64,000 bases of DNA from contig NW_025964334.1 of assembly GCF_023055435.1 (NCBI RefSeq), positions 14,508,001 through 14,572,000 of the forward strand. Direction: 5' to 3'. The notes under the pieces were generated by a model. That model had not been told where the DNA came from. It ran no database searches and was given only the letters and a program-made list of their open reading frames with translations. The stretch is from Haliotis rufescens (Eukaryota). Position numbers and translations under genes: made by a program. Positions 28,820-64,000 of this stretch are shown here, piece by piece (position 1 is the first letter of the stretch; every line of letters starts with the position of its first letter).

Positions 28820-31800
28820 CTCACTGTGATGAAGTACAGGATGGATGCCTGACTGATGAAGGACGGGAGGTACATTCTGACTGTGATGGACAGAAAGGAG
28901 AGTCTGACTGTGATGAAGGGCAGGAAGGAATATCTGACTGTGATGAAGGACAGGAAGGAGTGCCTGACCGTGATGACTGACAGGAAGGAGAGCCTGGCCG
29001 TGATGAATGACAGGAAGGAGAGCCTGACCGTGATGAAGAAGAAGAGGAAGTAATGTCTGACCGTGATGAAGGACAGGAATGAATGTCTAACTGTGATCAA
29101 GGACAGGAAGGAGAGTCTGACTGTGATCAAGGACGGGAAGGAATATCTGACTGTGATGAAGGACAGGAAGGATAGTCTGACTGTGATGAAGGACAGGAAG
29201 GAATGCCTGACCGTGATGAATGACAGGAAGGAGAGCCTGAACGTGATGAAGAAGAAGAAGTAATGTCTGACTGTGATGAAGGACAGGAATGAATGTCTGA
29301 CTGTGATGAAGGACAGGAATGAATGTCTGCCTGTGATGATGGACAGGAATTAATGTCTGCCTGTGATGAAGGACAGGAATGAATGTCTGACTGTGATGAA
29401 GGACAGGATGGATGCCTGACTGATGAAGGACGGGAGGTACATTCTGACTGTGATGGACAGAAAGGAGAGTCTGACTGTGATGAAGGGCAGGAAGGAATAT
29501 CTGACTGTGATGAAGGACAGGAAGGAGTGCCTGACCGTGATGACTGACAGGAAGGAGAGCCTGGCCGTGATGAATGACAGGAAGGAGAGCCTGACCGTGA
29601 TGAAGAAGAAGAGGAAGTAATGTCTGACCGTGATGAAGGACAGGAATGAATGTCTAACTGTGATCAAGGACAGGAAGGAGAGTCTGACTGTGATCAAGGA
29701 CGGGAAGGAATATCTGACTGTGATGAAGGACAGGAAGGATAGTCTGACTGTGATGAAGGACAGGAAGGAATGCCTGACCGTGATGAATGACAGGAAGGAG
29801 AGCCTGAACGTGATGAAGAAGAAGAAGTAATGTCTGACTGTGATGAAGGACAGGAATGAATGTCTGACTGTGATGAAGGACAGGAATGAATGTCTGCCTG
29901 TGATGATGGACAGGAATTAATGTCTGCCTGTGATGAAGGACAGGAATGAATGTCTGACTGTGATGAAGGACAGGAAGGAGTGCCTGACCGTGATGAATGA
30001 CAGGAAGGAGTGCCTGACCGTGATGAAGAAAAGGAAGTAATGTCTGACTGTGATGAAGGACAGGAATGAATGTCTGACTGTGATGAAGGACAGGAAGGAG
30101 CGTCAGACCGTGATGAAGGACAGGAATGAATGTTTGCCTGTGATGAATGACAGGAAGGAGAGCCTGACCGTGATGAAGAAGAGGAAGTAATGTCTGACTG
30201 TGATGAAGGACAGGAATGAATATCTGACTGTGATGAAGGACAGGAATGAATGTCTGCCTGTGATGAAGGACAGGAATTAATGTCTGCCTGTGATGAAGGA
30301 CAGGAAGTAATGTCTGACTGTGATGAAGGACAGGAAGGAGTGCCTGACCGTGATGAATGACAGGAAGGAGTGCCTGACTGTGATGAAGAAAAGGAAGTAA
30401 TGTCTGACTGTGATGAAGGACAGGAATGAATGTCTGCCTGTGATGAAGGACAGGATGGAGAGTCTGACTGTGATGAAGGACATGAAGGAATGTCTGACTG
30501 TGATGAAGGACAGGAAGGAGTGCCTGACCGTGATGAATGACAGGAAGTGGGGCCTGACCGTGATGAAGAAAAGGAAGTAATGTCTGACTGTGATGAAGGA
30601 CAGGAATGAATGTCTGTCTGTGATGAAGGACATGAATGAATGTCTGCCTGTGATGAAGGACATGAAGGAATGTCTGACTGTGATGAAGGACAGGAATGAA
30701 TGTCTGACTGTGATGAAGGACAGGAATTAATGTCTGCCTGTGATGAAGGACATGAAGGAATGTCTGACTGTGATGAAGGACAGGAAGGAGTGCCTGACCG
30801 TGATGAATGACAGGAAGTGGGGCCTGACCGTGATGAAGAAAAGGAAGTAATGTCTGACTGTGATGAAGGACAGGAATGAATGTCTGACTGTGATGAAGGA
30901 CATGAATGAATGTTTGCCTGTGATGAAGGACAGTAAGGAGAGCCTGACCGTGATGAAGGACAGGAAGGAGAGTTTGCCTGTGATGAAGGACAGGAAGGAG
31001 CATCTGAATGTGATGAAGGACAGAAATAAATGTCTGACTGTGATGAAGGACAGGAATGAATGTCTGACTGTGATGAAGGACAGGAAGGAGAGCCTGACCG
31101 TGATGAAGAAGAAGAGGAAGTAATGTCTGACTGTGATGAAGGACAGGAATGAATGTCTGACTGTGATGAAGGACAGGATGGAGAGTCTGACTGTGATGAA
31201 GGACAGGAAGGAGTGCCTGACCGTGATGAAGGACAGGAATGAATGTTTGCCTGTGCTGAAGGTCAGTAAGGAGGGCCTGACCGTGATGAAGGACAGGAAG
31301 GAGAGTTTGCCTGTGATGAAGGCAAGGAAGGAGCGTCTGAATGTGATGAAGGACAGGAATAAATGTCTGCCTGTGATGAAGGACATGAATGAATGTCTGA
31401 CTGTGATGAAGGACAGGAATGAATGTCTGTCTGTGATGTTGGACAGGAATGAATGTCTGACTGTGATGAAGGACATGAAGGAATGTCTGCCTGTGATGAA
31501 GGACAGGAATGAATGTCTGCCTGTGATGAAGGACAGAAAGGAGTGCCTGACCGTGATGAATGAAAGGAAGGGGAGCCTGACCGTGATGAAGAAGAGGAAG
31601 TAATGTCTGACTGTGATGAAGGACAGGAATGAATGTCTGACTGTGATGAAGGACAGGAATAAATGTCTGCCTGTGATGAAGGACAGGAATGAATGTCTGA
31701 CTGTGATGAAGGACAGGAATGAATGTCTGACTGTGATGAAGGACAGGAATGAATGTCTGCCTGTGATGAAGGACAGGAAGGAGTGCCTGACCGTGATGAA

Positions 31801-33785
31801 TGACAGGAAGGGAGCCTGACCGTGATGAAGAAAAGGAAGTAATGTCTGCCAGTGATGAAGGACAGTAAGGAGAGCCTGGCCGTGATGAAGGACAGGAAGG
31901 AGAGTTTGCCTGTGATGAAGGACAGGAAGGAGCGTCTGACCGTGATGAAGGACAGAAAGGAGATACTGATCATGATGAAGGACAGGAATGAGCGTCTGAC
32001 TGACATAAAGGACAGGAAGGAGAGTCTGACGGTGATGAAGGACAGGAAGGAGTGTCTGACCGTGATAAAGGAAAAGAAGGAATGTCTCACTGTGATGAAG
32101 GACAGGAAAGAGTGTCTGACTGTGATGAAGTACAGGATGGACGCCTGACTTATGAAGGACGGGAGGTACAGTCTGACTGTGATGAAGGACAGGAAGGAGT
32201 ACCTGACCGTGGTGAAGGACAGGAATGAATGTTTGCCTGTGATGAAGGACAGTAAGGAGAGCCTGACCGTGATGAAAGACAGGAAGGAGAGTTTGCCTGT
32301 GATGAAGGCAAGGAAGGAGCGTCTGACCGTGATAAAGGACAGAAAGGAGACACTGATCATGATGAAGGACAGGAAGGAGATTCTGCCTGTGATGAAGGAC
32401 AGGAAGGAGTGTCTGACCGTAATGAAGGACAGGAATGAGCGTCTGACCGACATGAAGGTAAGGAAGGGGAGCCTGACTGTGATGAAGGACAGAAATGAGC
32501 GTATGGCCGTGATGAAGGACAGGAAGGAGAGCCTGACCGTGATGAAGAAGTCGAAGTAATGTCTGACCGTGATGAAGGACAGGAATGAATGTCTGACTGT
32601 GACGAAGGACAGGAATGAATGTCTGTCTGTGATGAAGGACAGGAAGGAGCGTCAGACCGTGATGAAGGACAGGAATGAATGTTTGCCTGTGATGAAGGAC
32701 AGGAAGGAGAGCCTGACCGTGATGAAGGACAGGAAGGAGCGTCTGCCTGTGATGAAGGACAGGAAGGAGCGTCTGACCGTGATGAAGGACAGGAAGAAGA
32801 TACTGATTATGATGAAGGACAGGAAGGAGCGTCTGACTGACATGAAGGACAGGGAAGAAGTTTGATTGTGATGAAGGACAGGGAGGAGTGTCTGACCGTG
32901 ATGAAGGAAAGGAAGGAATGTCTCACTGTGATGAAGGACAGGAAAGAGTGTCTGACTGTGATGAAGGACAGGATGGATGCCTGACTGATGAAGGACGGGA
33001 GGTACAGTCTGACTGTGATGAAGATCAGGAAGGAGTGCCTGACCGTGATGAAGGACATGAATGAATGTTTGCCTGTGATGAAGGACAGTAAGGAGAGCCT
33101 GACCGTGATGAAGGACAGGAAGGAGAGTTTGCCTGTGATGAAGGACAGGAAGGAGCGTCTGAATGTGATGAAGGACAGAAATAAATGTCTGACTGTGATG
33201 AAGGACAGGAATGAATGTCTGACTGTGATGAAGGACAGGAAGGAGAGCCTGACCGTGATGAAGAAGAAGAGGAAGTAATGTCTGACTGTGATGAAGGACA
33301 GGAATGAATGTCTGCCTGTGATGAAGGACAGGATGGAGAGTCTGACTGTGATGAAGGACGGGAAGGAATATCTGACTGTGGTGAAGGACGGGAAGGAGAG
33401 TCTGACTGTGATGAAGGACAGAAAGGAGTGCCTGACTGTGATGAATGACAGGAAGGGGAGCCTGACCGTGATGAAGAAGAGGAAGTAATGTCTGACTGTG
33501 ATGAAGGACAGGAATGAATGTCTGACTGTGATGAAGGACAGGAATGAATGTCTGCCTGTGATGAAGGACAGGAAGGAGCGTCAGACCGTGATGAAGGACA
33601 GGAATGAATGACTGACATGAAGGACAGGAAGGGGAGTCTGACTGTGATGAAGGACAGGAAGGAGTGACTGACTGTGATGAAGGACAGGAAAGAGTGTCTG
33701 ACTGTGATGAAGGACAGGAAGGAGTGTCTGACGGTGATGAAGGACAGGATGGAGATACTGGTCATGATGAAGGACAGGGAGGAGA
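28820..33785. repeat. 30-bp purine-rich minisatellite, about 5 kb (roughly 165 units)
   Basis: Unit about ctgactgtgatgaaggacaggaa(g/t)ga(a/g)tgt; preceded by a poly-G tract at about 28788-28818; contains a 567-bp higher-order duplication. Confidence 0.95.
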
Positions 33786-34341: not shown

Positions 34342-35179
34342 TGGTCAGTTTCTTGTGTTGTTTAACTACTCCTTTTATTGCTGTAATATAATTGTTTAGC
34401 TTAATCTTTCTGATCATTCAGTTCCGACGTTCATACAGTTTGGCCCTCACTCTATGAAGGTTCATACCCCAATGAACTCACTCAAAGTGAAAGTCATTTC
34501 TAAAATGAATGACAAGTCTACTTACAAAACCTGCGACATGCGCGAAAACTGTGAAAACGCCATCATGGCATACATCACTTAGTATTGAGTAAGGAGTGAG
34601 TTGGTACCGTTGTACGCAGCATTTAGCAATACATGGGAAGCATTTTTAAATGGATATTTTCCGATTGATATGATTTGTTTGTTTTGTTTGTTTGTTTAAC
34701 GCCACATTCAGCAATATTCCAATTATTTGACGGAAGTCTGCAAAATTCGCCTCTTAACCAGACACTCCCGTGATTGACATCATGAGCATCGATCCACACA
34801 ATAGGGATACACTGGCATGCATCAATCAAGTCAGCGAGCCTGACGACCTGATCCTGTTAGTCGCCACTTACAAAAGACAGTCGCTGTTCATGGCAAGCAT
34901 GGGCTGCTGAAGACCTCTTCACAGATCTTCACGGGTTGAGAGTGCCAGCAGTTGGTGCAGTCGCCTATCTCCCTTCCACGAAGTTAAGGATGAACTGACA
35001 CTCTCAACGATTTTTTCAGATCGTTTCTAGATCGCATGATGCCTGATAACCCAATAAAATGACCCATTAAAATGATAAATGAGAAAAGAATTTGGTCACC
35101 GCTAAGAAAATTTCGATTGTAGTTATCTCCCTTTGTTTACACGTCCGTTTCTGTTGCAACAAGACTCGCTTCGATGACC

Positions 35180-37413
35180 ATGTGCACGTTGTCTCCAAAA
35201 TCCGTATTCATTACGGGTGCCAATAGGGGTTTGGGGCTGGAATTTGTGAAGCACTTTCTGCGTCTAGCGAATCCCCCTACCCACCTGTTCGCAGCATGTA
35301 GACAGCCGGACCAGGCCACGGAGTTGACGCAGCTAGCGAGCGAGAATGGAAGTATTCGCGTGGTAAAGCTGGACGTAAGACAGGACGAAGAAATCGCTGC
35401 GGCTGTGGCGGAGGTGGAGAAAGTTGTTGGCGATGATGGACTCAATCTGCTGCTGAACAACGCCGGTGTCAACCAACAGGAACAGGGCATCGAACCACTG
35501 ACACGGGAGAAGATGAATTATCACCTCGACTGCAATGTTACGGGTAGGTTAATTTATCGATGACAGACGATTGCCTGTTTTTTTTACCTGGCAACAAATC
35601 CTCTAATTATTATGCAAGTTCTGTGAGTGGTGGGGTTCGACATGCTTTCCCTTTTCGCGAACACCTGGTGTCATCACTGATTTTGTGTGATCAATTCATG
35701 TATTTTTTAGATCTATTTTGCCTGTGACGTACAATGGTTGGTTGGTTGGTTGGTTGGTTTGTTGTTTTACGCCGCACTCAGCAATATTCCACGTACAATG
35801 GAATCTGTTTCCTCGGATAATCGAGACAGCATTGTTATTCTCTGGCGTTGACATTTAAATTACGTGTTACGTATGTGTCTAGATGATTCTCTTGGCATGT
35901 GATTTGTTGACTTTATGGTCCATTATATTATTTTTTAAGCATAGCCAATGATCTCATTACCTTGAGATTATACTGCTTCATATTGATCTACATATAACAA
36001 GGGACCGCCTCCGTGGTCTTGTGGTAGAGCGTCCGCCCGGAGAGCGGAAGGTCCAGGGTTCGATCCCGGGCCGCGTCATACAAAAAGACGTTAAAAGATT
36101 GTACTTGTTGTTACCCTGTCTGGCGCTCGGCATTAAAGGGCTAAAACAAGGACTGGTCGGCTCGGAGTCAGTATACTGTGTCTGAGTGGGGTATTCATGT
36201 TAAACTGCGGCATGGTATCTCAGTGAGCTAGCACTATAAATCGGCATCAGTCCGGACTAGTACAAGCAGCCATACACACACATACACGTGCATGCACGTC
36301 GCTATATAAGTGCAATAATCTTTGACGCGACGTTAAACCCAATTTCATCTCACCTCACCTCACATATAACAAGGCATGCATTCATAAGCTAACTTGGACT
36401 TTTTGTTGTGATAACACTTTGATTATCTTTTTTAATGAGTTGCCTGAATAAAAACAAATTACAAAATATTCAAGTTTGAAATAACCCAAACCTGAAATGT
36501 AAGATAATCTCTTTTACATCATGCTTATAAATATTCCTTTCTGACGTATATGTCGAGGCATGTATGAGGGCATAAAAATATTGTAACATTTCGACAATAG
36601 TATTGTCTTTTGAAGCCGTTATGTCTTAAACACTGTGTTATATTGCCCGAGGTCTCTTCACCCGCAACAAGATGTAGGTAATACAGGTGGTCTAGTTGTC
36701 TCAAGTGCTGACACTCTATCAGACCGGTGCGCTATGCATGGGTTATATTCTTCCCGAGTATGCCCTTTGCTCTGTGACCACTGTGCCGTGCCAGTGGTTT
36801 GTTTTTTGTTGTTTAACGTTACACTCAGCAATATTACAGCTATGTGACGTCTGGACCACACAGTTCAGTGATTGATATCATGAACATCGATCCACGCAAC
36901 TGGGATGACATGCATCAATCAAGTCAACGAGCCTCACAAATTATAATTATGAGCCTAAATATTTCGATAACGCCTTTATGTGGTCTCACAGGACATGTTC
37001 TCTTTTCAGCCCCACTGTTGATTAGTAAAGCGTTACTTCCCACACTGAGACGAGCCGCAGACAAGGTAGAGTTCAGCTGCAGCAGAGCGGCCATCATCAA
37101 TCTCTCTTCTATCTTGAGCCTTATCAACCACATCAACAAAATAAACGACTTCCGCTACCCTTACAACAGCTCAAAGTGTGCCCTCAACATGGTGACCGAT
37201 ATTCTCGCGAGAGAAGTTTCCCCGGACGGGGTGTTGGTGGCTGGGATCCACCCCGGGTGGGTCAGGACCGACATGGGAGGTCCTAACGCAATGATAGATA
37301 AGGAAGAAAGTATTTCCAAGTGTATGAATACATTTGCAGCGATGAATAAAGATTCGTCAGGGTTGCTGTATTCATACACAGGAGATATCTTTGAATGGAA
37401 TTCCAGGCCCTAA
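35180..37413 (+). CDS. C-factor/sniffer-like SDR, copy 3 (exons 35180-35543 and 37010-37413; 255 aa; alternative ATG at 35174)
   Basis: Same SDR motifs and identical exon lengths; GT-AG phase-1 intron. Confidence 0.93.
36001..36360 (+). mobile_element. Family M SINE in the intron of SDR copy 3
   Basis: Near-identical to the 17550 copy; TSD acatataacaag; absent at the equivalent site in the copy 2 intron (about 25195-25210). Confidence 0.88.
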
Positions 37414-38182
37414 GTAATTGCAACGTATGTTATTTGCCTGAAAATATATCATGCAATAGGTTGTTAGGTTATGGAAGAAATTATTATATGTGCGAAAATA
37501 TTGTTTACCTTGTAGAATAAGCATTATATTTCAATGTTTATTTAAATATTCTGATTTGATAAAACGGAGTTAGGGAAGATCCATGTGATTTGAAAATTCA
37601 CACAAATTGTTCCCTTTTTTCACCACGGTCAACAAACTGTTCATTTTAGGCATATTACTGAAAAAACTATCCAATTAAACAATCCCCCGCCCCACCACCA
37701 GCAATAGAAATCAAATGGATGTTCCCGTACTGATTCCTCTTTTAATCCTCAGGATAGTTGGAATTCCCTCGAGTAATGAGTTGTGCTGTAATATACTTGT
37801 AGATGCAGGATGAGAATCAATATCAAACAATATAAAGTATATGTGACATATGGACCACGTACTGGTTAGTTGAGATTCCTTTTCAGGAACAGATTAATAA
37901 ATGTGGTGCCAATCTGAAATATGCTGTGTTTGTATTTTGCAAGAATGTTGGCATCATTTCAAAGAAGAAAGACAGGCTATTGGGACGGAGACACCTACAG
38001 TGGCCAATTCATTGTTCATAGGTTTGTCAGGAACCTATGATCGTGGGTCCGAAGCCCAGAGTCGCCTGATTATGTTTTTAGGTTTGTCAGCACTGTTCCC
38101 GTGCTCGTGTATTTCACCCAAGTTGTAAAGCGTGTTTCATTGCTTATGTCAAGCTGGAACGTCGTGATATAACTGAAATACT

Positions 38183-40948: not shown

Positions 40949-41152
40949 ATATATTTGATATCAAAAGTCACTCGGGTGAGATTCTCTATATCCAGACGCT
41001 CACGCGCTATCAGTGTCACTGATACGGCCGCGGTATCAACAATGACAACATTAGGTATGTGCATGCTATGATAGCAAACCGATTTACTCATGAATATGTT
41101 AGAGAGAGGTAAATACAAGGAAGACAGGATTGACGTATGGATTTCGACTTCT

Positions 41153-41285: not shown

Positions 41286-42631
41286 TTTTGCGATCCGACG
41301 TTTCGTTACAGATACATATAACCAGTTAAGGTGCTTATAAGGTACTGGTATCTGTACCCAACCGTCGTATCAAAATAATATTTGTTTGTACATTTATTTG
41401 TTAACACCATACTCGGCAATATTCAGCTCAATGACGGCGACAAGAAAATAATAGAGTCTGGACCATACAAACCAGTGACTGATATTGTAAGCATTGTTTC
41501 AGGCCGTCAGGGTTCGCTGATACGCACTCAACTAGGTCAGCGAGTCTTCCTAAATTATCAATTAAGTCGCCCTCTACCCCTGAAGTTCCGCAGGGATAGA
41601 ATAGGTCTTGAGCAACCCATGCTTGCCGTGAGAGGCGACTGACGGGATCGGGCGGTCAGGCTCGCTGACTTGGTTGATGCATGTCATCGTATCCCAATTG
41701 CGTGGACCGATGCTCATGATGTCAATCACTGGATTGTCTGGTCCAGACTTGATTACTTACAGACTGCCGTCATATAGCTGGAATATTGCTGAGTGCGGCG
41801 TTAAGCAACAATTGAAACAAACAAACTTAACTAATACTACAGCTTCTAAATGTCACTTCAAAAACACATGCATAGATTCATATACATGCTTATTCCATTT
41901 GACTTTAATTTAACAATTGTGCCATTTCATTATATGTATCTTGAAATGCCGATACCTCAAACGAAATTATAGTATTAATAGACAGTAGATATGGTAAGTA
42001 TGTGCGATAGCTCGTGAACAACAATGCTACGAATATCCATGTGTATGATATGTACGTATCCATAGGCACACTTATCTTGACCCTCATCCACGTGTGATTG
42101 ACTCAACTGCCATATCGTATATCTCTATACATCAGACATAAGTATTAACAGTTAAATGTTGACGGTATTTTCCATACAAATCATCAGATTTGAGACCATT
42201 TAGCGTAGCTCAAACTTCAGCAAGGATTATGTATATTACCTGATTGGCCTTTGATGACATACAACATGGGAGGGACACAGTCAGGTGAGATGTAACGTCT
42301 TAACGTCGCGTATGTAGGTTAGTGTTTGTTTGTTTGTTTGTTGTGTAACGCCGCACTCAGCAATATTCCAACTATATGACGGCAGTCGGTAAATAATCGA
42401 GTCTGGACCAGACAATCCAGTGATTGACTGACCACCCGATCCCGATAGTCACCATTTACGACAAGCATAGTCGATATTTACGGCAAGCATGGGTTGCTGA
42501 AGACCTATTCTACCCCGGATCTTCACGGGTCTTACAAAATTAGGTTACGTTGCATACATCATCTAAGTCATCGAGCCTGGCCACCTGATCCCGTTAGTCG
42601 CCTCTGATTTTTTTATTTGTCTTTGCATGTG

Positions 42632-42730: not shown

Positions 42731-45345
42731 CATTTGACAGTGATTCATAAACACATGGTCACGATATAGTCGGAATCGTACAATCGACTCTGCCTTTTGC
42801 AGAGATTTCTTATGAATATGGAATGGGTTCTGTCGTTGTATTTAGACCAACAATCGAAACAGGGCACATCTGGGGTTTGAACTCGCTGTCAGTGATTCAT
42901 GGCACAACTGAAGGCACGCAATCACTGCGACATGATTCATAGAAGGTACACCGCGGTACGATGACACATTATCAAACATGTCACGATCGTGTAGTTATCT
43001 CTTAAGCACAATACAATATACTTCTGGTTCATCGATCACTTGATCGTCTAGTTTGTTTACAGGCTGACGGAGTACTGTTGTGCGGCGTCAGGCAATAAAT
43101 ATTTACTTTTTTATTCAAATTGTATGAATGGAGGGTGCTATCGGTAGGTCAGATATGCTTTCCTTTTCGCGAACACCTGGTGTCATCACTGAATTTCAGT
43201 GATCCATTCATTAAATTTCCACATTTATTTTGCCCTTTACGCCAAATGGCATCTGTTTCAGCAGATAATCTAGGCTGGTTATTCTTTAGCATTAACAATT
43301 TATAATTACATATATATTGAGGCTAGTCTAACCAGTAATTCATGGAAATTGGATTCAACGTATCTGACCTACATGTATGTGTTTCAGGAGCCTGCGTTAG
43401 TACTAAATTGATGGCTCATGCAAGCAATCATTGTTTTCCTTCATTCAAGACTTCAGACGTTCGATTCCAGACCCGAATAGATCGCCCACACGCCACGCAT
43501 ACCCGAAGAGCTGACTAAGCTTGGTTAGGGTCAAGGTGTGACTAGGTTGTGTGTCACGGTTCCCCGATGTTGTGGTTCGAACCGCTGGTTTGTCTGGCCC
43601 GGACTCACAAACACAAAAAAACTCACTCTAACCTATTTTTACAAGGAGACTTTTCCTTGCGATCTTATCAAAGGTTCTGCATACTGAGATGGGGCTATAC
43701 CGTATTGAAGGAATCGTAACTTGGTCAATAAATTGATGAAATAGTGCTGACGTGACTTCAAATTTTAACTCAATCACTCATCATTATTTGACTTTTGATC
43801 CCTTTAGTGTTGATCAATTCAGTTGCTTTCTCATATTTCATCACTATTCACATCGAAGAGACTGTCTGATATAATAAGTGGGTGAGTGAGTCTGGTTTTA
43901 CGTCGATTTTAGCAACAACCGAGCAATATCACGGCTGGGAACACTAGAAATGGACTTCAAACATTGTACCCATGTGGGGAATCGAACCTGGGTCTTCGGC
44001 GTGACGAGCGAACGCTTTTATCACAAGGCTACCCCTCACTCATTCATCGTTATATCCATACTTAAAACGATGTGCCGGTTTTTTCAGGGAAGCGATCTTC
44101 ACAGCCTCTTCTATATGGCGGTAAGAAATCTTTAATTTCCTTAATCTTATTCAAATACTACTATAATCGTCCACGCAAATTTTTACTTGAGAGGCTGAGA
44201 AAAGTAACATGAAGTAGGCCAAACTATGTCAAATGTATCAAACCTATTCCAGAGCACGCGCTAGTGTTCTGGTGTAGTTGCAAGCTGCTACGACCAAGCA
44301 CGTGAAAGCACTCAGGTTGGAAAACAAAAAACTGTCATTGAGAATTCAAGTAAAAATATTCATATCGTAGTTAGCTTATTGAACGCGCCTCGTATATCAA
44401 GCCACCCTGAGTTGAGTCTATAATTTTAGGCAGGTAGAAATTGTGACTACAAACACTTCATTTTATTGTTATTATTTATTTCTATGGATCTTACCACTGA
44501 TCATGGAGAACTATAAACGTAATAAAGGGAACTACTAGTATGTTACTCTGTCATTTATATTTATTGAGTTATAACGTTGGCATGAAACATTTTAATGAAC
44601 AAATTGAGTGAGTAGGTATGGTTTTACGCCGCTTTGGGCAATATTCTAGCAATATCATGTTCCCATGTTGGGAATCGAACCCGGGTCTTCGGCGTGACAA
44701 GCGAACGCTTTAACGACTCGGCTTCCCCGTTGCCCCAATGAAAAAAGTAGTAAACACGAATGTTCAGTATGTACCTGTATCTATTCCCTATTTGCATCCA
44801 TCGGTTCTTCCTTAAACGCTTATTAATTTTTTATTGCACGTCCCCGTTCGAACGATATGAATTGAAATAAATAAAATAGCTTCCCGGTCAGTATAAGCTA
44901 CATGTACGTATGAAATGGGATACCAAATGAATACGTCATATTTCTAAGAAGTTCAGTTCTGCACTGTATTTTTCTGTTTAGTTGATTATAATAAGGTGCT
45001 TTTGATTGTGTTTATCTTAAATACTTTATTTATGTACGTACATTGTACATGTGTATTAGACATAAATAGTTTCATTCCTCGGATCACCTTGCCATTAACA
45101 CGGTAGCGTAAAGATCATACTGACATTAATAACTTCTACTATATATAGTACCTGGTTTTGTTATAACGGGGTGATTGTGACATTATAACAGGGTGATAGT
45201 GTTATCTACATTTTATCTGAACAGTGGTAGCAACTGTAAGCAACACCGGTCTTGTTAGATAAGAAGGGTAAATACAGATTCACTGTAGGATTATTATTAT
45301 TTAATCATATAATACTGCTTAAAATTTTATCAACCTCATTTACAG

Positions 45346-48300
45346 ACGAGTATGACACCCCAACAGCTTCGACCCTGTACTGCTGTTGTCTTGGAAGAAA
45401 AATAAAAATGCCCATAAAGTATGGAAGTGACCAAAAACAACAGGCATATCGCTTGCAGGAATACCCCATGTTGATAGATCCAGGTACATTTATCTACCCC
45501 TTACATATTTACTCTATGAAGATGAATTCAGGAATATGATCTACCCCTCACACATGCACTCTCTGTTGATGTATCTTCCCCTTACACGAGTATTTCATGG
45601 TGATAGATCCAGGTGCATTATTTATCCCTTACATATATATCCCATGTTGATAGATCCAGATACACTATCTATCCCTTACATATATACCCATGTTCATAGA
45701 TCCAGGTACATTATCTATCCCTTACATATATACTCCATGTTGATACATCCAGATACATTTTGTATCCCTTACATACATACCCCGTGTTGATAGATCCAGG
45801 TATATTATATATCCATTACATATATACCCCGTGTTCATAGATCCAGGAGCATTATCTATTCCTTGCATATTTACCTTATGTAAATAGACCCAGGTACATT
45901 ATCTATCCCTTTCATATATACCCCATGTTGATAGATCCATATAAGTTATCTTTCCCTTACATATATACCCCGTGTTGATAGACCCAGGTACATTATCTAT
46001 CCCTTTCATATATACCCCATGTTGATAGATCCATATAAGTTATCTTTCCCTTACATATATACCCCGTGTTGATAGATCCAGGTACATTATCTCTCTCTTA
46101 CATATATACCCCGTGTTGATAGATCCATGTACATTATCTACCCCTTACATACATACCCCATGCTGATAGATCCAGGTGCATTATCTATCCCTTAGATATA
46201 TACCCAATGTTGATAGATCCAGGTACATTTTCTATCCCTTACATATATACTTGTGTTGATAGATCCAGGTGCATTATCTATCCCTTACATATATACCCTA
46301 TGTTGATAGACCCAGGTACATTATCTATCTCTTACATATATACCCCATGCTGATAGATCCAGGTGCATTATCTATCCTTTAGATATATACCCCATGTTGA
46401 TAGATCCACGTACAATTTCTATCCCTTACATATATACTTGGGTTGATAGATCCAGGTGCATTATCTATCCCTTACATATATACCCCGTGTTGATAGATCC
46501 AGGTAAATTATCTATCCCTTACATACATACCCCATGTTGATAAATCCAGATACATTATCTATCCCTTAGATATATACCCATGTTCATAGATCCAGGTACA
46601 TTATCTATCTCTTACATATATACCCCGTGTTGATAGATACAGGTATTTTTTCTATCCCTTACATATATACCCATGTTCATAGATCCAGGTACATTATCTA
46701 TCCCTTACATATATACCCATGTTCATAGATCCAGGTGCATTATCTATCCCGTACATATATTCCCATGTTCATAGATCCAGGTGCATTATCTATCTCTTAC
46801 ATATATACCCATGTTCATAGATCCAGGTACATTATCTATCTCTTACATATATACCCCATGTTGATAGATCCAGGTACATTTTCTATCCCTTACATATATA
46901 ATTGTGTTGATAGATCCAGGTGCATTATCTATCCCTTACATATATACCCCATGCTGATAGATCCAGGTGCATTATCTATCCCTTAGATATATACCCCATG
47001 TTGATAGATCCAGGTACATTTTCTATACCTTACATATATAATTGTGTTGATAGATCCAGGTGCATTATCTATCCCTTACATATATACCCATGTTGATAGA
47101 TCCAGGTACATTATCTTTCTCTTACATATATACCCCATGTTGATAGATCCAGGTACATTATCTATCTCTTACATATATACCCCGTGTTGATAGATCAAGG
47201 TGCATTATCTGTCTCTTACATATATACCCCATGTTGATAGATCCAGATGCATTATCTATCCCTTTCATATACACCCCATGCTGATAGATCCAGGTGCATT
47301 ATCTAACCCTTAGATATATACCCAATGTTGATAGATCCACGTACATTTTCTATCCCTTACATATACACTTGAGTTGATAGATCCAGGTGCATTATCTATC
47401 CCGTACATATATTGCCCATGTTGATAGACCCAGGTACATTATCTATCCCTTACATATATACCCAATGTTGACAGACCCAGGTACATTAACTATCTCTTAG
47501 ATATATACCCCATGTTGATGAATCCAGATACATTATCTATCCCTTAGGTATATACCCATGTTCATAGATCCAGGTACATTATCTGTCTCTTACATATATA
47601 CCCCATGTTGATAGATCCAGATGCATTATCTATCCCTTTCATATACACCCCATGCTGATAGATCCAGGTGCATTATCTAACCCTTAGATATATACCCAAT
47701 GTTGATAGATCCACGTACATTTTCTATCCCTTACATATACACTTGAGTTGATAGATCCAGGTGCATTATCTATCCCGTACATATATACCCCATGTTGATA
47801 GACCCAGGTACATTATCTATCCCTTACATATATACCCAATGTTGACAGACCCAGGTACATTAACTATCTCTTAGATATATACCCCATGTTGATGAATCCA
47901 GATACATTATCTATCCCTTACATATATACCCTATGTTGATAGACCCAGGTACATTATCTATCTCTTACATATATACCCCATGTTGATAAATCCAGATACA
48001 TTATCTATCTCTCACATATATACCCCATGTTGATGAATCCAGATACATTATCTATCCCTTACATATATACCCTATGTTGATAGACCCAGGTACATTATCT
48101 ATCTCTTACATATATACCCCATGTTGATAAATCCAGATACATTATCTATCTCTTACATATATACCCCATGCTGATAGACCAAGGTACATTAACTATCTCT
48201 TACATATATACCCCATGCTGATAGACCCAGGTACATTAACTATCTCTTACATATATACCCCATGCTGATAGACCCAGGTACATTAACTATCTCTTACATA

Positions 48301-49583
48301 TATACCCCATGTTGATAGACCCAGGTACATTAACTATCTCTTACATATATACCCTATGTTGATAGACCCAGGTACATTATCTTTTCCTTACATATATACC
48401 CCATGCTGATAGATCCAGGTGTATTATCACTCCCTTACATATACCCCATGTTGATAGATCCAGGCACATTATCTATCCCTTTCATATATACCCTATGTTG
48501 ATGGATCAAGGTAAATTACATGAGTACCCCAATTTTATATTTCCGAAAGAGACATGCACATTTTATATGAAAGAAAGTATGAATACACCAAAATAAAGAT
48601 TGGGTGGTGCTTCACTCTTGTCCAGGTGTATATATGATTATTGGGAGTACCCTCTTCCAACAGTCGCTTTCCGGGTCCACTCTGCTGTTGCTGATAAGCG
48701 TTTTGGCAAGGCCATGATCAGGTTTGTTCAGCGTTCTGGACACGTGTCGCTCCAAGACACCGAAACTGATGACGTTACAGCGGTCAGTCCTCTAATTGTC
48801 TTCTGTCTCAACAACAGTTCAGTGGACGCAGATGCAGGCAGAGCTCTCAGCGAGGCTAGAGGTCAGCTTTAGACAAGTAACATCTCAAAGCATGAATGTT
48901 TCATATAAACAAGTCTTAGATAACATTTACCAAGATTGTATTTCACGAGAATATATTCTAAAATGTTTCAAGCCATTTGTATTGGATACATAATGATTCA
49001 TAATAAAATCAGAAACATGACAGAAAACCTAAAGACTGGACAGATAGAGACAGGAATTTACACTGTTTTATTATATATTTCCAGATAAAGAAAACAAATC
49101 ATCACCAAATTAATAATAATAACCTTTACTTTCTGTTCCTGGTTAGAAGAGACCATTTACGCATTAAATGTTTGGTTGCGATATTGACGTTCGAATTGCA
49201 TATAAATAATGTGTATCATGCTTCAAATGCTGAAGCTTAATATAGTACCACTTTCAAGATTATCCAGATGCTTTTAATGTTTTTAACGCTACACAAAACG
49301 TATTCCGTTCACGTTGATTTGGAGTATGAAAAGTGATGACCTTTATGTTCGTCTGTTTTCAGAGGGTAATGATGTGTTTCTGGTGGTGATCAAAAATGTA
49401 AACCCAAGCTCACCCTACAACAACACCCTCAGTCTCTCTGCTAAGAACAGGCGCCGCATTGGTGGGTGTGGAATACTTACATACTCTACGGATTCCAGGA
49501 AGTTCCAGGAAACAGATGACAATATGGACATGTTAAGGCGATTACGTCACTTCTTACTGGACGCAGTTGTTGAAATTGATTAA
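45346..49583 (+). CDS. Uncharacterised gene A with one copy of the ~130-aa alpha/beta domain (exons 45346-45483, 48664-48861, 49363-49583; 5' end uncertain, possible ATG at 45408 or upstream mini-exon 44088-44120)
   Basis: Canonical AG/GT phase-1 junctions give an open frame ..YCCCLGRKIKMPIK..YPMLIDP-VAFRVHS..SPLIVFCLNNSSVDADAGRALSEAR-EGNDVFLVVIK..RIGGCGILTYSTDSRKFQETDDNMDMLRRLRHFL..*; clearly homologous to gene B with the same intron positions. Confidence 0.75.
45462..48516. repeat. 47-bp intronic satellite (about 60+ units)
   Basis: Unit ccccatgttgatagatccaggtacattatctatcccttacatatata; includes a ~374-bp higher-order duplication (47281 versus 47655). Confidence 0.95.
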
Positions 49584-51947: not shown

Positions 51948-52069
51948 TGAAGCATGACTGTGACACGCCCCTTGGATGAAGCATAGCTGTGACACACCCC
52001 TTGGATGAAGCATGACTGTGACACACCCCTTGGATGAAGCATGACCGTGACACACCCCTTGGATGAAAC
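51948..52069. repeat. 29-bp tandem repeat, about 4 copies
   Basis: tgaagcatgactgtgacacaccccttgga repeated. Confidence 0.9.
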
Positions 52070-55000
52070 ATGGGTAGCTCGACATCAGGTGATGCTTTGT
52101 GCCGAAGTTCATTAATCAGGATCCTAAAATAGGTGTACAAAAGTTAAATCAGCTTGTAAATCACACTCCTGCATGTATACATGTATATTGTTCATGATGA
52201 TAAGCGTCCCTTGAACACGCCAGAAACCTATGATTGTGAGTTCGAATCCCGGTTCGCCCCGATTATGTTTCTAGGTTTGTCAGCACCATACCCGTGCTCG
52301 TGGGTTTCAGCGAAGCGGTAAACGTCTGAGACCTCCATCACTTCGGGCTTTCCTCCCACATTAAGCTGACACGCTATGATATAACTGGAATAATGTTAAA
52401 AGTGGCGTTAAACCCAACTCACTCACTCACTCACTCACTCACTCACTCATGATTATAAGGGGCGGCGGGGTAGCCTGGCCTCGTCACACCGAGTTTCGAT
52501 TCCCCAAATGGGTACAATATGTGAAGCCCGTTTTTGGTGCCCCCGCCGTGATATTACTGTGATATTGCTAAAAGCGGGGCAACTCACTCACTCATAATGA
52601 TAAAGGGTCTCATAACACACCTTGTTTAATGGCAACAAGGAATACACGTGCATTCACACAATGCATATTCCTTCATGATCATGATCACTGTGGTGTATAC
52701 AAATACGGGTTGAATGTTTAGTTATATTTCATAATTCATGTGTTTGAATATGACGTGGGAGGAAAGCCAGAGGATATATAGGGTGTAGACGTTTACCTTG
52801 GGTCATCGTATATCGTATTCACCCTCAGATATATCTCAAACACTTGTGTAACGATGTTCAGTTGACATAAGACAAATCAGTTCTTTGGGAAACGTGCAGT
52901 GAAATAAACATGAATTTTAGTTTCATATTATGCGATGGAAGATTCGGCCCTGATTCAGAAGGTAAAAGACAAAGTCAGGCGGAAGTGTAAGCTGAATCTG
53001 AAAAAGGTGTCAGCTCGTTCCCAAGCCAGCCCCCTACTTCTTTTCTGCGAGGTCACAACTACCATCGATAAGGCTGTCAATGACATCGTTAAAGAAGCTA
53101 GAGGTATCATTTCATTTGAATTCTTGACATGCACAATTCAACGAAGGATACCCATACGCACAATGGCATTAAACAAATTAACATTTGATTTCATTTCTTA
53201 ACAACACATAACACATGACTTACAAATTGTTGTCTACTTGGCTTTGAAACTTAGGGACCGACCATTTTATATTCTGGGATGGGGGTGATGACTAAGATTA
53301 AAAAAGAAATTGTCCTAGAGAATGCTTAAAAAATAAAACAAGGACATTTGTCTGTCACTAAAATGCATTGTTGCAATATGTTGTTTATTTATTTATTTTT
53401 TTAAAAAGTAGTATTTGGCCTAAAACAAAAATAGAGAGGATATTCCATGCGACGAGTGAAATATCATGCTTCTCTCATCGAGTAACGGGGAAAAGGTGAT
53501 ATTTTCTTGAGATGAGACGAAAATGATATTTCACTCGACACATGGAAAATCCTATTTATTAAATACTTTTTTGTGTAGTTGGCTACCGGAAAATTGAATT
53601 ATTTCATAACAAATCGAAAACCTTGAAACGTAAAATTTCCCTACCTAACACACAGGGTCGTTTCACCATCCCTTGTAAGTGCGACTTTAAAGTAATTTAA
53701 ATTAAAATCTGAAAAAATATAAACAAAAGTAACAAAAAAATATTTGATGTCAAGTAACAAATGTTGTGCCTTTCGGAATGAACAGCCTCGATTGACGAGT
53801 TAAATGAGAATTTACAGTTTACAACAAAACAATTTCAAGAGTAATATTTTCCACCACTCGACAAGAAGCAATATTACATGTAACGCCATAAATAACCATC
53901 TGTCACTATTTTGCCTTGTCAATGCGGAACTAACGTCAATAGGAAGTCAACAGTTTGTGTACGGGCTAGACAATTGCGATAAAGGGAGCTAATTGGCGGG
54001 GAGGTTACTCTTGTAAGACAATAGTTCCGTCGAAGTGTAATGTTCACTGCAGTGAAATATTATGTCTGATGTTCAGTGTTTTTGTTCACTGCAGTAAAAT
54101 ATCAAGTGTTATGTTCACTGCGATGAAAATACCTCTTTTCTGAACTTCAAATTAATATGATTTTGCAACTGTAGCTGAAAAATTATTACTTACCAATACA
54201 GAATCCTAACACCTTCCAGCGCCTCCGTGGTCTAGTGGTAGAGCGTCCCCCCGGAGAGCGGAAGGTCCGGGGTTCGATCCCCGGCCGCGTCATACCAAAA
54301 GACGTTAAAAGATGGTACTTGTTGTTACCCTGTCTGGCGCTCGGCATTAAGGGGCTAAAACAAGGACTGGTCGGCTCGGAGTCAGTATACTGTGTCTGAG
54401 TGGGGTATTCATGCTAAACTGCGGCATTGTATCTCAGTGGGCTAGCACTTTAAATCGGCATCAGTCCGGACTAGTACAAGCAGCCACACACACACACACA
54501 CACACATGCATGCACGTCGCTATATAAGTGCAATAATCTTCGACGCGACGTTAAACCCAATTTCACCTCACCTAACAACTTCCCCGAATATTTAATGATC
54601 GGTCCCTCACAAACGTTAATTAGGAGGCCTGGGTGTCTACTCGGCTTTGAAATTAATTACAAAAGAATACCGCAAAAATACCCGAACCAGCTCCTTAACC
54701 TTCAGTCATAATGGACACCCGTTACTATTGCAAATCTTTGATATAATTCTCCTGTTACTACGTTCATTGCAGGTGGCGATGATGTTTTTGTGGTCACGGT
54801 TAAAGTCAGCAATAGACACCCTGGAAAAAACAAGCATTTGTCCGATTTCATAGCGGAAAGCACAAGGAGATTAATTGGAGACGCTTGTGTGTTCTTCTTT
54901 GACATGAACCTTGCATCAACTGATTACCGAAATGACAATAAAATTGCCTTTTGTGGAATAAAACGGTTCATGGCAGATGTCAAGCCAGCTGATAGACATA

Positions 55001-57459
55001 TGATACTGCCTCATGTCACTTTTCAGAGACATCCCTTCCTCAATGAGCCAGGTAAATATAATTACTAATATAACATATTGTGACCCTATATAATATAGTG
55101 ACCCGCCAAGAGAAAAGGGACCTTTTGGGTGCTAGGGTACACTTGTGCTATGACGTCATCAAGACGTTTGACGTCAGCTTCCTTTAGTGAAGATCGCCAT
55201 GTGTGATGTCATGTATTTCTGTAACAAATATGAATTGAAGCTTGTGAATTGTATATTTATATTCCGAAGGTGCCGTAGTTTAAAAATATAATGAAAAGTT
55301 AAAATGAAAATTTTCACCCATAAGGTTCCTTATCTCATGGTCGGTCACGTATGATGTTTTCAACAAAGCGTCATTCGTAACAGGACACAACAACATGATT
55401 ATTTGTTTATTTTAATTTGTCATAGAAGAGTAGCTTGGGGATAGCTAAATATGAAAACGTTTGGATTCCTCACGTTGGACTTGTGCATTTTAAAGGCGGC
55501 CATGTCAAGTAGTTTGCTGTATTCTAGGCCGGACCATATGCACGTGCGTTCAACTTGCGCCTATTGATACAGCGCGCTTCATGTAGGCATGGTATATATA
55601 CAAACGTAATCACAACAGTGTTTCTTGTGGACTAGAAGGTGCATTGTTGTCGTAAGTCATAATACATGGGACAAAATAAGAAAAACTGATGTTCGCTTTA
55701 AATTACATCATGAACGTACACATAATGAATTGTATAGCTCGTTCCTCATTTTTAACTTCGACAGATTTTCACGAAAATAACAAATATTTAACGGAATTGT
55801 CTTTGTGTTATTGTATACAAATACTCCTCAGACTCTAACAAGCTTTTAAATCTTTGATCATTGTCAGTCGATAACAACTTGCTTTCCAACATAGTGAGTG
55901 AGTGAGTGAGTGAGTGAGTGAGTTTGGTTTAACGCCGCTTTTAACAGTATTCCAGTTATATCACGGCGTGTCAGCTTAATGTAGGAGGAAAACCCGAAGT
56001 GATGCAGGTCTCAGACGTTTACCACTTCGGTGAAACCCACGGGCACAGGCATTGTGCTGACAAACCTAGAAACATAATCGGGGCGAACCGGGATTCGAAC
56101 CCACAATCATAGGTTTTCTGGCGTGCCCAAGGGACGCAACTCTGCACAGCGAATCGCGGCGCCTTAGACGACTGGGCCACCCGTGCCCCCCTTTCCAACA
56201 TAGAATTTCACTTCTGGTACAAACTGTTAACTAATAAATGTTTGAATAGAAAAGCCGCTGAATTGCAACACAGAAATAAAGGAGGATAACAGAGAGTTGA
56301 AGTGCGAACATTTGTGGTACTATATCCGGCATTGTCAAGATACAAGAACATAATGTAAGGGGTAAGGTGGTACATCCCGTTGTATTAACACTGTAGAACA
56401 TGTACATATGATTAGACATTTACGCTTCATTTTTCAGTTTTTGGGTAATATGTCTTCGTTTGTAAACACACTGCAGATATAAACGTACCATTTTTCAGTT
56501 TGCTTCTATTTTGAACCTGGGAGTCACATGGAACAAGACACACTGACCTTCGTGCAGGACGTAGGGCAGTTCCCCTTGCAGAAGTGTGCCAGATCTGACG
56601 TCAGGTCTGTCAGCCCGCTCATTGTGTTCACACTTTGCTACACCCGTGTTGATGAGGATGCTAATTCAATCCTCAGACAAGCCAGAGGTAACCTTTGCTT
56701 TATTTAGGGAACATGTTCAAATGCTTGTATTAATATGTCTTACTATGTGTTGGGTTAGTATGCTTACCGAAAGATGGAGTCGCTATATGGCTGAAATAAT
56801 GCCCGTGCGACGTTAACTTGTAACTCACTCACTCGCTGAGAGATGGTCGTTTAAATTTACTTTATCATATGATAAGCAGAGAGATATATATGTAGACAGT
56901 GATTTATTAAATATATTGTTTTAAAAAGTGCAGTGTGTATTATTCATAGAAATGATCCATCATAAAATTGGCTATCACTATTCCCTCTCATACACCTCAA
57001 AATTTGAGATATGCGTTCGGTCAAACAGAGTGCAGTTTTCATATCAATTGTTTGATAAAGGTTAGCGCAGTACCTCTAAACTTCTGCATTCCTAACGATG
57101 ACAGTTTTAAGAATGCGTTGATCAAAATATATTGGCAACCACTAAGTGACTAAATATGCAGTATATGTTCTTCAGATGGACATGACGTGTTTCTGGTGGT
57201 GATAGAAAGTGCCTACAAGCACTCAGCAATCACAATCAGCAATGTTCCACATCTATCTTCAAGGACCAGAAGTCGTATTGGAGAGAGCGGCACACTGGTG
57301 TACTCACTTGACTGCAAGAGCTTTCAAGAAACGAGTCAGAATATGCAGATGATACAAAGATTACGGAAGTTTCTTATCGACACGGTGGAAGCAAACAAAT
57401 CCAATAGTTTAAGAAGATCAAGAAGTACTTTAGCCGATTGCCGTGGAACACTGCTTTGA
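52070..57459 (+). CDS. Uncharacterised gene B with two tandem copies of the same domain (exons: putative 52070-52088, then 52921-53103, 54773-55051, 56499-56687, 57176-57459; about 317 aa)
   Basis: All junctions AG/GT phase 1 and in frame (183, 279 and 189 nt internal exons). Domain 1: SPLLLFC..KEAR-GGDDVFVVTV..RLIGDACVFFF. Domain 2: SPLIVFT..RQAR-DGHDVFLVVI..RIGESGTLVYSLDCKSFQETSQNMQMIQRLRKFL. The first exon (MGSSTS) is tentative. Confidence 0.8.
52203..52450 (+). mobile_element. 5'-truncated family L SINE
   Basis: Near-identical to 9768-9995, with a (ctca)n tail. Confidence 0.85.
53253..54608. mobile_element. TIR-bounded non-autonomous DNA element with nested hairpin element and SINE
   Basis: agggaccgaccattttatattctggg / cccgaatatttaatgatcggtccct imperfect TIRs; internal hairpin at about 53438-53553; family M SINE at 54218-54572. 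Confidence 0.55.
54218..54572 (+). mobile_element. Family M SINE
   Basis: Near-identical to the 17550 and 36001 copies; TSD about ctaaca(c/a)cttcc. Confidence 0.85.
55098..55348. mobile_element. MITE
   Basis: TIR gtgacccgccaagagaaaagggaccttttgggtg / cacccataaggttccttatctcatggtcggtcac. Confidence 0.6.
55895..56190 (-). mobile_element. Family L SINE, full length
   Basis: TSD ctttccaacatag; head ggggcacgggtggcccagtcgtctaaggcg; box B gggttcgaatccc; (ctca)n tail. Confidence 0.88.
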
Positions 57460-62123: not shown

Positions 62124-63527
62124 GAAACTGGACTTTTATAGTCAGTTAAGGCCCTTGATTCGGGAAGATGCACCAACCCGAACGGCATGCATGTATGATA
62201 GCTTCAGTACAGTCACTGTCATCAATTTGCATCCTTATTGTATGTTCAGATAGCGCCCTGTCATCTGGCGAGATTTCCTATTTCCGTCTGACTGTATTTA
62301 TCTTTCCTGTGAGCTGTTCACATGTTTCCTTCTCAGACACATTCAACCTTACATTTGGCTCATGGTATGCGAGGCAATTGCGAGCGTTGGTTGACAGACA
62401 TAGTCAGGCTCTTCAAGGTAGGATAAACGTATGCCATTAATATGCACTCATCGATGTGTATTTCATGCATGAACAGAAATAATGTTTCACATTTGTGTTT
62501 ACACTCGTCTATTGAGATTGCTAAATTGTTTCAGTAAAGCTTTCAAAAATTGTATGGTATACATGTTGAGGACATTTCCAAATTCGTTTTATCAGTGACA
62601 AAAATGATGTCCGATCCCATTCCCTATTTTGATTTATACCATATGTTCCCGTGTTTTATCAGGTGAATACTTGATTTGTCTTTGCATGTGTTTGTGATGG
62701 ATGCCACCTTTTCTGGAACGACTAGTAACATCATTATTTGATAGTGATTCATAAACACATGCTCATGATATAGTAGGTATGGTACAGTCGACTCTGCTTT
62801 TGACTGAGAGCTCTTATGAACATGGAAAGGGTTTGGTCGCCTTTATTTATTATTATGTTGCTCGAACTTACAGACCTCGTGTCGCACAGCTTCGTCTCAT
62901 GAATGTAAATGCACTTTCGATTGGTTTTGTTACAGATGCCGTGCTGGGATAAATGCGTTGGGGCGGTAATGTATTAATTTGTTGATAAAAGTGAGACGTG
63001 TTTTACGACTCCATCAGAAATGTATACATATATATAACGGCGGCCTGTAAATATACATGTCGTCTGAATCAGGCAAACCCGCGACTGAAAAAATGACACG
63101 CACTTAGGTGACTAGACCCCATTTCACAAAGTCACCGTAGAGCTAAGACTAACGTAAAGCTATATGAGTCGTATATACGACAGTCGTATACTCACTTTGT
63201 ATAACGGTACCAAGCCGGCTTGTAATCAGTAGAATCTGGACAAGAGTCTGCGACTGAAAGACCATGTGATCCAGATGAGAGTCACAATGGTAGCCACTAT
63301 GATAGCCATTGATGCTGGATCCGTGAAGATCTGGGGTAGCATGGGTCTTCAGCAACCAATACTTGCCGTAAGAGGCGACTATGCTTGTCGTAAGAGACGA
63401 CTAACGGGATTGGGTGGTCAGGCTCGCTTAATTGGTTGGTGCATGGCATCGTATCCCAATTGTGTGGATCAATGCTCACGATGTCCTTGTCTGGTCCAGA
63501 CTCCGTTATTTACAGACTGCCGATAGC

Positions 63528-64000
63528 TACACAGAACTGAAACATGGCAAAGTGATATGTAGATAGGTACACAGAACTGAAACATGGCAAAGTGATATGT
63601 AGATAGGTACACAGAACTGAAACATGGCAAAGTGATATGTAGATAGGTACACAGAACTGAAACATGGCAAAGTGATATGTAGATAGGTACACAGAACTGA
63701 AACATGGCAAAGTGATATGTAGATAGGTACACAGAACTGAAACATGGCAAAGTGATATGTAGATAGGTACACAGAACTGAAACATGGCAAAGTGATATGT
63801 AGATAGGTACACAGAACTGAAACACGGCAAAGTGATATGTAGATAGGTACACAGAACTGAAGCATGACAAAGTGATATGTAGATAGGTACACCGAACTGA
63901 AACATGGCAAAGTGATATGTAGATAGGTACACCGAACTGAAACATGGCAAAGTGATATGTAGATAGGTACACCGAACTGAAACATGGCAAAGTGATATGT
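63528..64000. repeat. 40-bp near-perfect minisatellite, running off the window end
   Basis: Unit acagaactgaaacatggcaaagtgatatgtagataggtac, about 12 copies. Confidence 0.95.

Follow-up and report, generated by a model that had tools for sequence, protein, structure and literature searches.

What happens to an intron that begins with dozens of copies of its own 5' splice donor? The question is raised by LOC124135441, an uncharacterised gene of Haliotis rufescens (here gene A), which lies in a 64,000-nucleotide stretch of genomic DNA (RefSeq assembly GCF_023055435.1, contig NW_025964334.1, positions 14,508,001 to 14,572,000 of the forward strand; hereafter the window, numbered from its first letter). 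A first-pass annotation of the window had noticed that a 47-bp satellite starts inside an exon of this gene and repeats the exon end and its donor through the intron, and had proposed that the copies might tune splicing or nonsense-mediated decay, act as recursive splice points, or be hidden in hairpins. We find that the array lies where it had been placed, that the first donor is the one used, and that a stop codon at 45537 truncates products of the later donors tested. The array is most probably a near-neutral minisatellite whose first unit happens to span the exon-intron junction, and it is likely removed with the intron.

The gene model was built by joining 41042-41054, 44088-44120, 45346-45483, 48664-48861 and 49363-49583, which yields a protein identical to RefSeq P0004 (the features of gene A, of its paralog gene B and of the array are all on the + strand). 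The first of these segments is the coding part of the first exon of isoform X2; the other alternative first exon, that of isoform X1, has its coding part at 42254-42284 and gives a joined model identical to P0005. A 33-nt exon (44088-44120) precedes the 138-nt phase 1-1 exon at 45346-45483, the last 23 nt of which begin the array; then come an intron of 3,180 nt (45484-48663, with its acceptor at 48663/48664 from the match to RefSeq proteins), a 198-nt exon (48664-48861) and, in the RefSeq-matching model, the last coding exon, running to the stop (49363-49583). This last exon matched proteins of H. cracherodii and H. asinina, and the clusters holding those matches also contain three H. rufescens LOC124135441 isoforms and the H. 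rubra ortholog. For independent evidence we turned to contigs from 4 of 24 listed runs (X18, X15, X2 and X7), aligned to the 5' flank at 44050-45595. Two of the runs are RNA-like: X18, from organism A (depth 21.9), and X15, from organism B (depth 117). Both join 44120 to 45346 at GT..AG and show no intron cover save low pieces in X15, which supports their status as RNA; together with the match to P0004, this join bears out the earlier assignment of 45346-45483 as an exon.

Two analyses, Tandem Repeats Finder and a scan that used the exon-intron junction as its anchor, confirmed the array, whose first unit is the end of this exon plus its donor. The former reported a tandem array at 45596-48518 (period 47, 62.5 copies, 86% matches); the latter returned 71 rows, from which 7 out-of-register matches were left out, giving 64 recognisable units of 46-47 bp with donor-equivalent positions from 45484 to 48511 and a mean identity of 86%. 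Unit 1 (45461-45507) comprises 23 nt of exon, identical to the array majority, and 24 nt of intron, with the donor in use at 45483/45484. It is followed by two decayed units without a GT donor (45508-45595; alignment score over 45510-45595 of 115, versus a maximum of 45 in 300 shuffles), in which the donor-equivalent position 45532 reads AG/GA, and then by the regular part of the minisatellite (45596-48516), with 63 units, 45 of them carrying AG/GT, and block duplications of 210 nt (exact, at offset 374), 138 nt (at 141) and 99 nt (at 94). A terminal unit and tail (48488-48535) close the array with a Met codon, a donor-like AAG/GTAAAT at 48511 and a tail equal to a unit minus 11 nt. In all, the array makes up 95% of the intron, leaving 147 nt of unique sequence at its 3' end. 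A 22-nt unit motif has 62 matches across the window, all within 45469-48517, and 0 in 100 shuffles. In a search for more decayed units, local scores in the right flank (48540-48670) and in the upstream exon stayed within the shuffle range, and an end-anchored alignment of the upstream exon to the unit was borderline (1.8% of shuffles).

The donor copies are fewer than the roughly 60 CCAG/GT sites at first estimated. GT is kept in 50 of the 64 units, AG/GT in 46 and CCAG/GT in 42. Downstream of the real donor lie 45 AG/GT sites, 24 of which share its nine bases, and 18 of the 63 units beyond unit 1 lack AG/GT.

Which of these donors is used? The main contigs of both RNA-like runs align over 45345-45483 and then stop, each record continuing with other letters (1195 beyond that end in X18 and 184 in X15, in the orientation as interpreted), and thus the exon ends exactly at 45483 in 2/2 runs. 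Depth over 45506-45595 is zero in both, as compared to 10 and 22.5 in the DNA-like runs. Because use of any later donor would require this segment in the transcript, its zero depth speaks for the first donor. The same two exons are joined, with no inserted residues and with the downstream exon always present, in 6/6 named orthologs (three H. rufescens isoforms, H. cracherodii, H. asinina and H. rubra), which are annotation models and not independent experiments. The most upstream donor is therefore the main one used in these runs and orthologs, with the proviso that contigs drop rare forms and those degraded by nonsense-mediated decay.

The decoys are not obviously inferior sites. By a simple count of matches to U1, 27 of the 45 equal the real donor and one scores higher, so that position, rather than strength or masking, separates decoys from the real donor. 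A TGA stands at 45537-45539, as had been noted, with no GT between 45484 and this stop, and each of the next three unit junctions that we tested leads to a truncated product of 79 amino acids. The next intact donor lies 129 nt beyond the first and would make an exon of 267 nt instead of 138 nt. We infer that the first donor wins by being the first functional donor after the upstream acceptor, as in human F7, and that the loss of GT from the two nearest units, which sets the next donor at this distance, would help. Any slip to a later donor would be cleared by nonsense-mediated decay, leaving the decoys free to drift. The stop at 45537 makes errors cheap to clear; this is no demonstration of regulation.

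AG/GT is changed in 18/62 interior units, a count that falls in the middle of the range for the 44 four-base windows (5-34), and donor loss shows no significant rise towards the exon (Fisher p 0.17-0.55 at three cut-offs over the 63 regular units, the two decayed ones left out), in a test that is weak in that units are not independent. The donors decay like other positions, with no significant sign of selection on them.

Several observations weigh against so simple an account. The transcript evidence consists of only two RNA-like runs, seen as assembled contigs from which rare forms are dropped, and their RNA status is a tool's guess, none of the listed runs being recorded as RNA; the join from 45483 to 48664 rests on RefSeq models. 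An extra piece of X15 (~31 nt, depth 10.7) lies over 45489. Both units adjoining the real donor have lost GT, of which selection could be the cause; the same two units are also the most decayed overall, the first having 8 changes in 23. A 7-bp inverted repeat around the donor of the majority unit is reached in only 29 of 1000 unit shuffles and so may not be chance. Finally, the preference for the first donor was demonstrated in mammalian cells, not in molluscs, and the human precedents are not uniform: IFI6 and CBS make use of two nearby decoys (PMC1557585), and array length in ABCA7 shifts the skipping of the next exon (PMC5954066).

These precedents nonetheless make the abalone array likely to be a further case of a known type, the donor-spanning minisatellite, described in human F7, CBS, IFI6, LMNB2 and PDGF; the F7 study lists all five as genes with junction minisatellites (PMC1557585). 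All four features that we compared are present in the abalone: a tandem array, a first unit lying across the boundary, a reiterated donor, and main use of the first donor. The closest parallel is the 37-bp variable number tandem repeat (VNTR) in intron 7 of F7, which has the same junction-spanning first unit and repeated donor, and of which only the first donor is used; in that work, minigenes used only the most upstream functional copy, the copies took over only once the first donor was destroyed, and no masking structure was found (PMC1557585). F7 has 5-9 near-identical copies and 4 exonic bases, as against about 65 copies, 86% identity and 23 exonic bases in the abalone; polymorphism and the competence of the decoys have been demonstrated for F7 (PMC1557585). 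IFI6 (6-16), CBS, LMNB2 and PDGF share this architecture with 10-26 copies, as summarised in the same study (PMC1557585). In LMNB2 and PDGF the real donor alone is used, as seen in the abalone; IFI6 and CBS also splice at two nearby decoys, whereas in the abalone the nearest two units lack GT and no decoy use was seen. A looser likeness is to the 25-bp VNTR in intron 18 of human ABCA7, which has a donor in each unit and in which decoy use leads to a premature stop; its alleles reach 9.7 kb, so the size of the abalone array is not exceptional, but its unit starts at the GT with no exon part, unlike the abalone unit, and its length is correlated with how often the following exon is skipped (PMC5954066). 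Arrays of the ABCA7 type belong to the splicing-associated tandem repeats, in which repeat length is associated with a splicing ratio (PMC10078293).

How could such an array have arisen? The junction itself is older than the array sequence, because it is common to the paralog gene B and to orthologs of four species. Gene B (52070 to about 57460) is ~47-50% identical to gene A in the last two exons, and its exon at 54773-55051 ends at the equivalent phase-1 junction (55051/55052), followed by a 1.4-kb intron with no array. The end-anchored 12-amino-acid similarity between the two genes at the junction was reached in 1 of 20,000 random draws. The earlier view that the unit derives from a conserved coding junction holds. 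What the unit copies is gene A's own version of that junction; over the final 23 nt of the exon, gene B agrees with it at no more than 14. The codon at the junction, first taken as Gly, is split as G/TC and encodes Val in both genes, the proteins reading ...IDP-V in gene A and ...NEP-V in gene B.

Slippage at a short repeat common to the exon end and the intron start may have duplicated this junction, after which unequal exchange would have enlarged the array in blocks. One reading of its origin takes the right edge as the old intron start: a 36-nt slip between two words would have seeded the array, and the unit would then have grown to 47 through the insertion of 11 nt that include the 3' arm of the inverted repeat. 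The right edge matches the unit after an 11-nt deletion at 18/24 positions (reached by 19/3000 shuffles), and 48522-48535 matches the exon at 45459-45472 in 11/14 (43/20,000 shuffles). Simple decay of the last unit fits this edge equally well.

The array start is common to at least two organisms, because a DNA contig of organism B crosses the decayed units at 45508-45595 and extends ~35 nt into the regular array, and excess depth (about 100) falls on unit 1 in both DNA-like runs. Organism B carries 20 differences in ~600 nt of the upstream intron and the Leu variant found in P0001. We rejected an assembly artefact as the source of the array: the units differ from one another (86% mean identity), and each of two independent DNA-like runs has unit-like excess depth; the number of copies may not be exact. 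We also dropped an apparent lack of divergence between organisms A and B over 45484-45595 (no difference listed and no more than 1, with 3.7 expected; p 0.02-0.11), as 44996-45106 is equally difference-free.

A different role for the array is suggested by a single codon. Within the copied codons, the six orthologs vary at one residue only, which is Ile in H. rufescens and H. cracherodii and Met in H. asinina and H. rubra. This codon (45474-45476) is ATA in 58/64 units, the exon included. The terminal unit has ATG, as do three interior units and the first decayed one, so that both edge units read Met. Edges that keep the old state would imply that exon and array changed together, through exchange in either direction, and the array may indeed have exchanged this codon with its exon. 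The bolder version is that the satellite wrote back into its own exon: Ile would have spread through a Met-first array and reached the exon through gene conversion or unequal exchange, altering the protein in the lineage of H. rufescens and H. cracherodii. We regard this as unlikely. The edge units have decayed in any case (8 and 3 of 23 positions changed), A-to-G changes are frequent, and the Met/Ile pattern needs no write-back if the exon re-seeded the array. No outgroup for this codon was found.

That array length tunes the output of the gene, through decoy donors that feed decay or through in-frame skipping of 48664-48861 as in ABCA7, is improbable in our judgement. The idea has some appeal, as every later donor tested truncates the protein and skipping of the 198-nt exon would keep the frame (134 amino acids). 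There is also precedent: skipping of ABCA7 exon 19 rises with VNTR length (PMC5954066), and the length of an intronic minisatellite in another abalone gene differs between animals (PMC6905558). Yet 45506-45595 is without RNA depth in 2/2 RNA-like runs, the downstream exon is present in every named ortholog, and the donors of the array decay like its other positions, leaving the tuning first proposed unsupported. Even in ABCA7, retention of one VNTR unit did not vary with length (PMC5954066).

Masking of the decoys in hairpins, with the real donor left open, is very unlikely. The mildly non-random 7-bp inverted repeat that flanks the donor of the majority unit is the argument for it; the repeat may have helped slippage instead. 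Contrary to the first description, the repeat is perfect in only 15/64 units, and the altered 3' arm of unit 1 does not release the real donor. Equilibrium predictions at 37 C (RNAfold) give unit 1 a 7-bp stem-loop at 45473-45494 (arms 45473-45479 and 45488-45494, with one G-U pair) of -3.6 kcal/mol, stronger than the decoy median of -2.8 over 45 decoys and covering positions +5 and +6 of the real donor. The predicted cost of opening the 9-nt donor is 3.09 kcal/mol in unit 1 versus a decoy median of 2.13 (2.55 versus 1.60 in a shorter context), so that the real donor is as hard to open as, or harder than, 29/45 decoys in a 141-nt context and 36/45 in a 71-nt context. Where the stem forms in the majority unit, the decoy donor would lie wholly in the loop, and a predicted U1 duplex of about -7 kcal/mol exceeds the hairpin.

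The notion that the AG/GT sites of the array are recursive splice points for stepwise removal of the intron is hardly tenable. Recursive sites do resemble the array units in having AG directly before GT inside an intron; they carry a pyrimidine tract before YAG/GT, which is absent before the array unit sites (PMC10156609). With the minimal motif Y5+N0-4YAGGT given there, none of the 45 decoy sites qualifies; of the two intron sites that match it, the one at 47548 is incidental and the one at 48626 lies outside the array. Positions -13 to -4 hold 4-6 pyrimidines of 10 in the units versus 6-9 in eight true acceptors, another AG lies 6 nt upstream in 44/45 decoys, and gene B splices its equivalent 1.4-kb intron without an array.

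There is next to no chance that a satellite found across the genome inserted itself at this place and became part of the exon: at the protein level the exon end is conserved in H. asinina, H. rubra and gene B, no unit copy occurs elsewhere within the window, and the summed contig depth (a rough measure, not a copy number) is about 100 for the unit in both DNA-like runs versus millions over a short interspersed nuclear element (SINE), so that the unit is not an abundant satellite. In a metagenome collection, from which abalone DNA is possibly absent, the unit motif had 0 exact matches.

The product of gene A gives few clues to its function. A Pfam search of the host protein (P0001) returned no family, and its phmmer relatives (E 1e-33 to 7e-4) include abalone paralogs, Littorina P0013 and sea bass P0012, placing it in an unnamed animal alpha/beta domain family; in an atlas search, the best cluster (0.93) was unnamed and mostly of molluscs. 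No stretch of P0012 passed in Pfam. The predicted structure has a three-layer alpha/beta fold over residues 60-200 (mean pLDDT, the predicted local distance difference test, 59). Its best structural matches are tied among small GTPases, TIR and flavodoxin-like domains (Z up to 9.2, no Foldseek E <0.001), and these low-confidence matches allow no functional assignment. In most gene A orthologs an MGG start is followed by a Cys-Cys-Cys run (45378-45386), a pairing that presumably recalls lipid-anchoring signals. Gene B holds two copies of a domain present once in gene A, with matching exon boundaries, and in relatives the matched stretches number from 2 to about 9. At the other end of the array-bearing intron (48610-48663), another AG stands behind a good pyrimidine tract and runs directly into GT at 48626, 38 nt before the annotated acceptor; this site fits the minimal recursive motif with a remnant of only 38 nt, and as an acceptor it would shift the frame (91 amino acids). 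We found no paper naming LOC124135441, and none on this locus among the Haliotis intron-minisatellite papers found, in a search outside which most subscription journals lay.

Other repeats and genes share the window. Just before the first coding exon of gene B, a 29-bp repeat of 4.3 copies (51948-52072) ends on the likely start ATG at 52070, which matches the N-terminus of P0008/P0009; it contains seven upstream ATGs with short frames and is a second small array lying on a functional signal. A two-exon short-chain dehydrogenase gene lies at 35177-37414 (Pfam adh_short, E 1.2e-14, first exon). A purine-rich array of 166 copies of 30 bp spans 5 kb (28789-33783) after a 30-nt G run; its longest open frames, of up to 771 amino acids, are on the minus strand, and its plus-strand frames are interrupted. 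At 63522-64000 a 40-bp array (98% matches) begins inside a dispersed SINE-like repeat and runs past the window end; its unit contains AG/GT, with no exon seen before the array. A very abundant short dispersed repeat at 44570-44777 has a summed contig depth in the millions and is present in the RNA-like runs too.

For now, the finding carries little weight: a curiosity already known is here seen in a mollusc as well. It does suggest that preference for the first donor holds in a mollusc against 45 decoys, one of them a better match to U1 than the real site, and the length of the array could be used as a marker in a species that is farmed, while the array itself could provide a natural test, beyond mammals, of how donors are chosen. 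Should the satellite have written back into its exon, junction-spanning arrays would be a source of amino-acid change, beyond their supply of decoy donors; and if the codon was exchanged, in whichever direction, proteins would have a way to change through the concerted evolution of repeats within introns.

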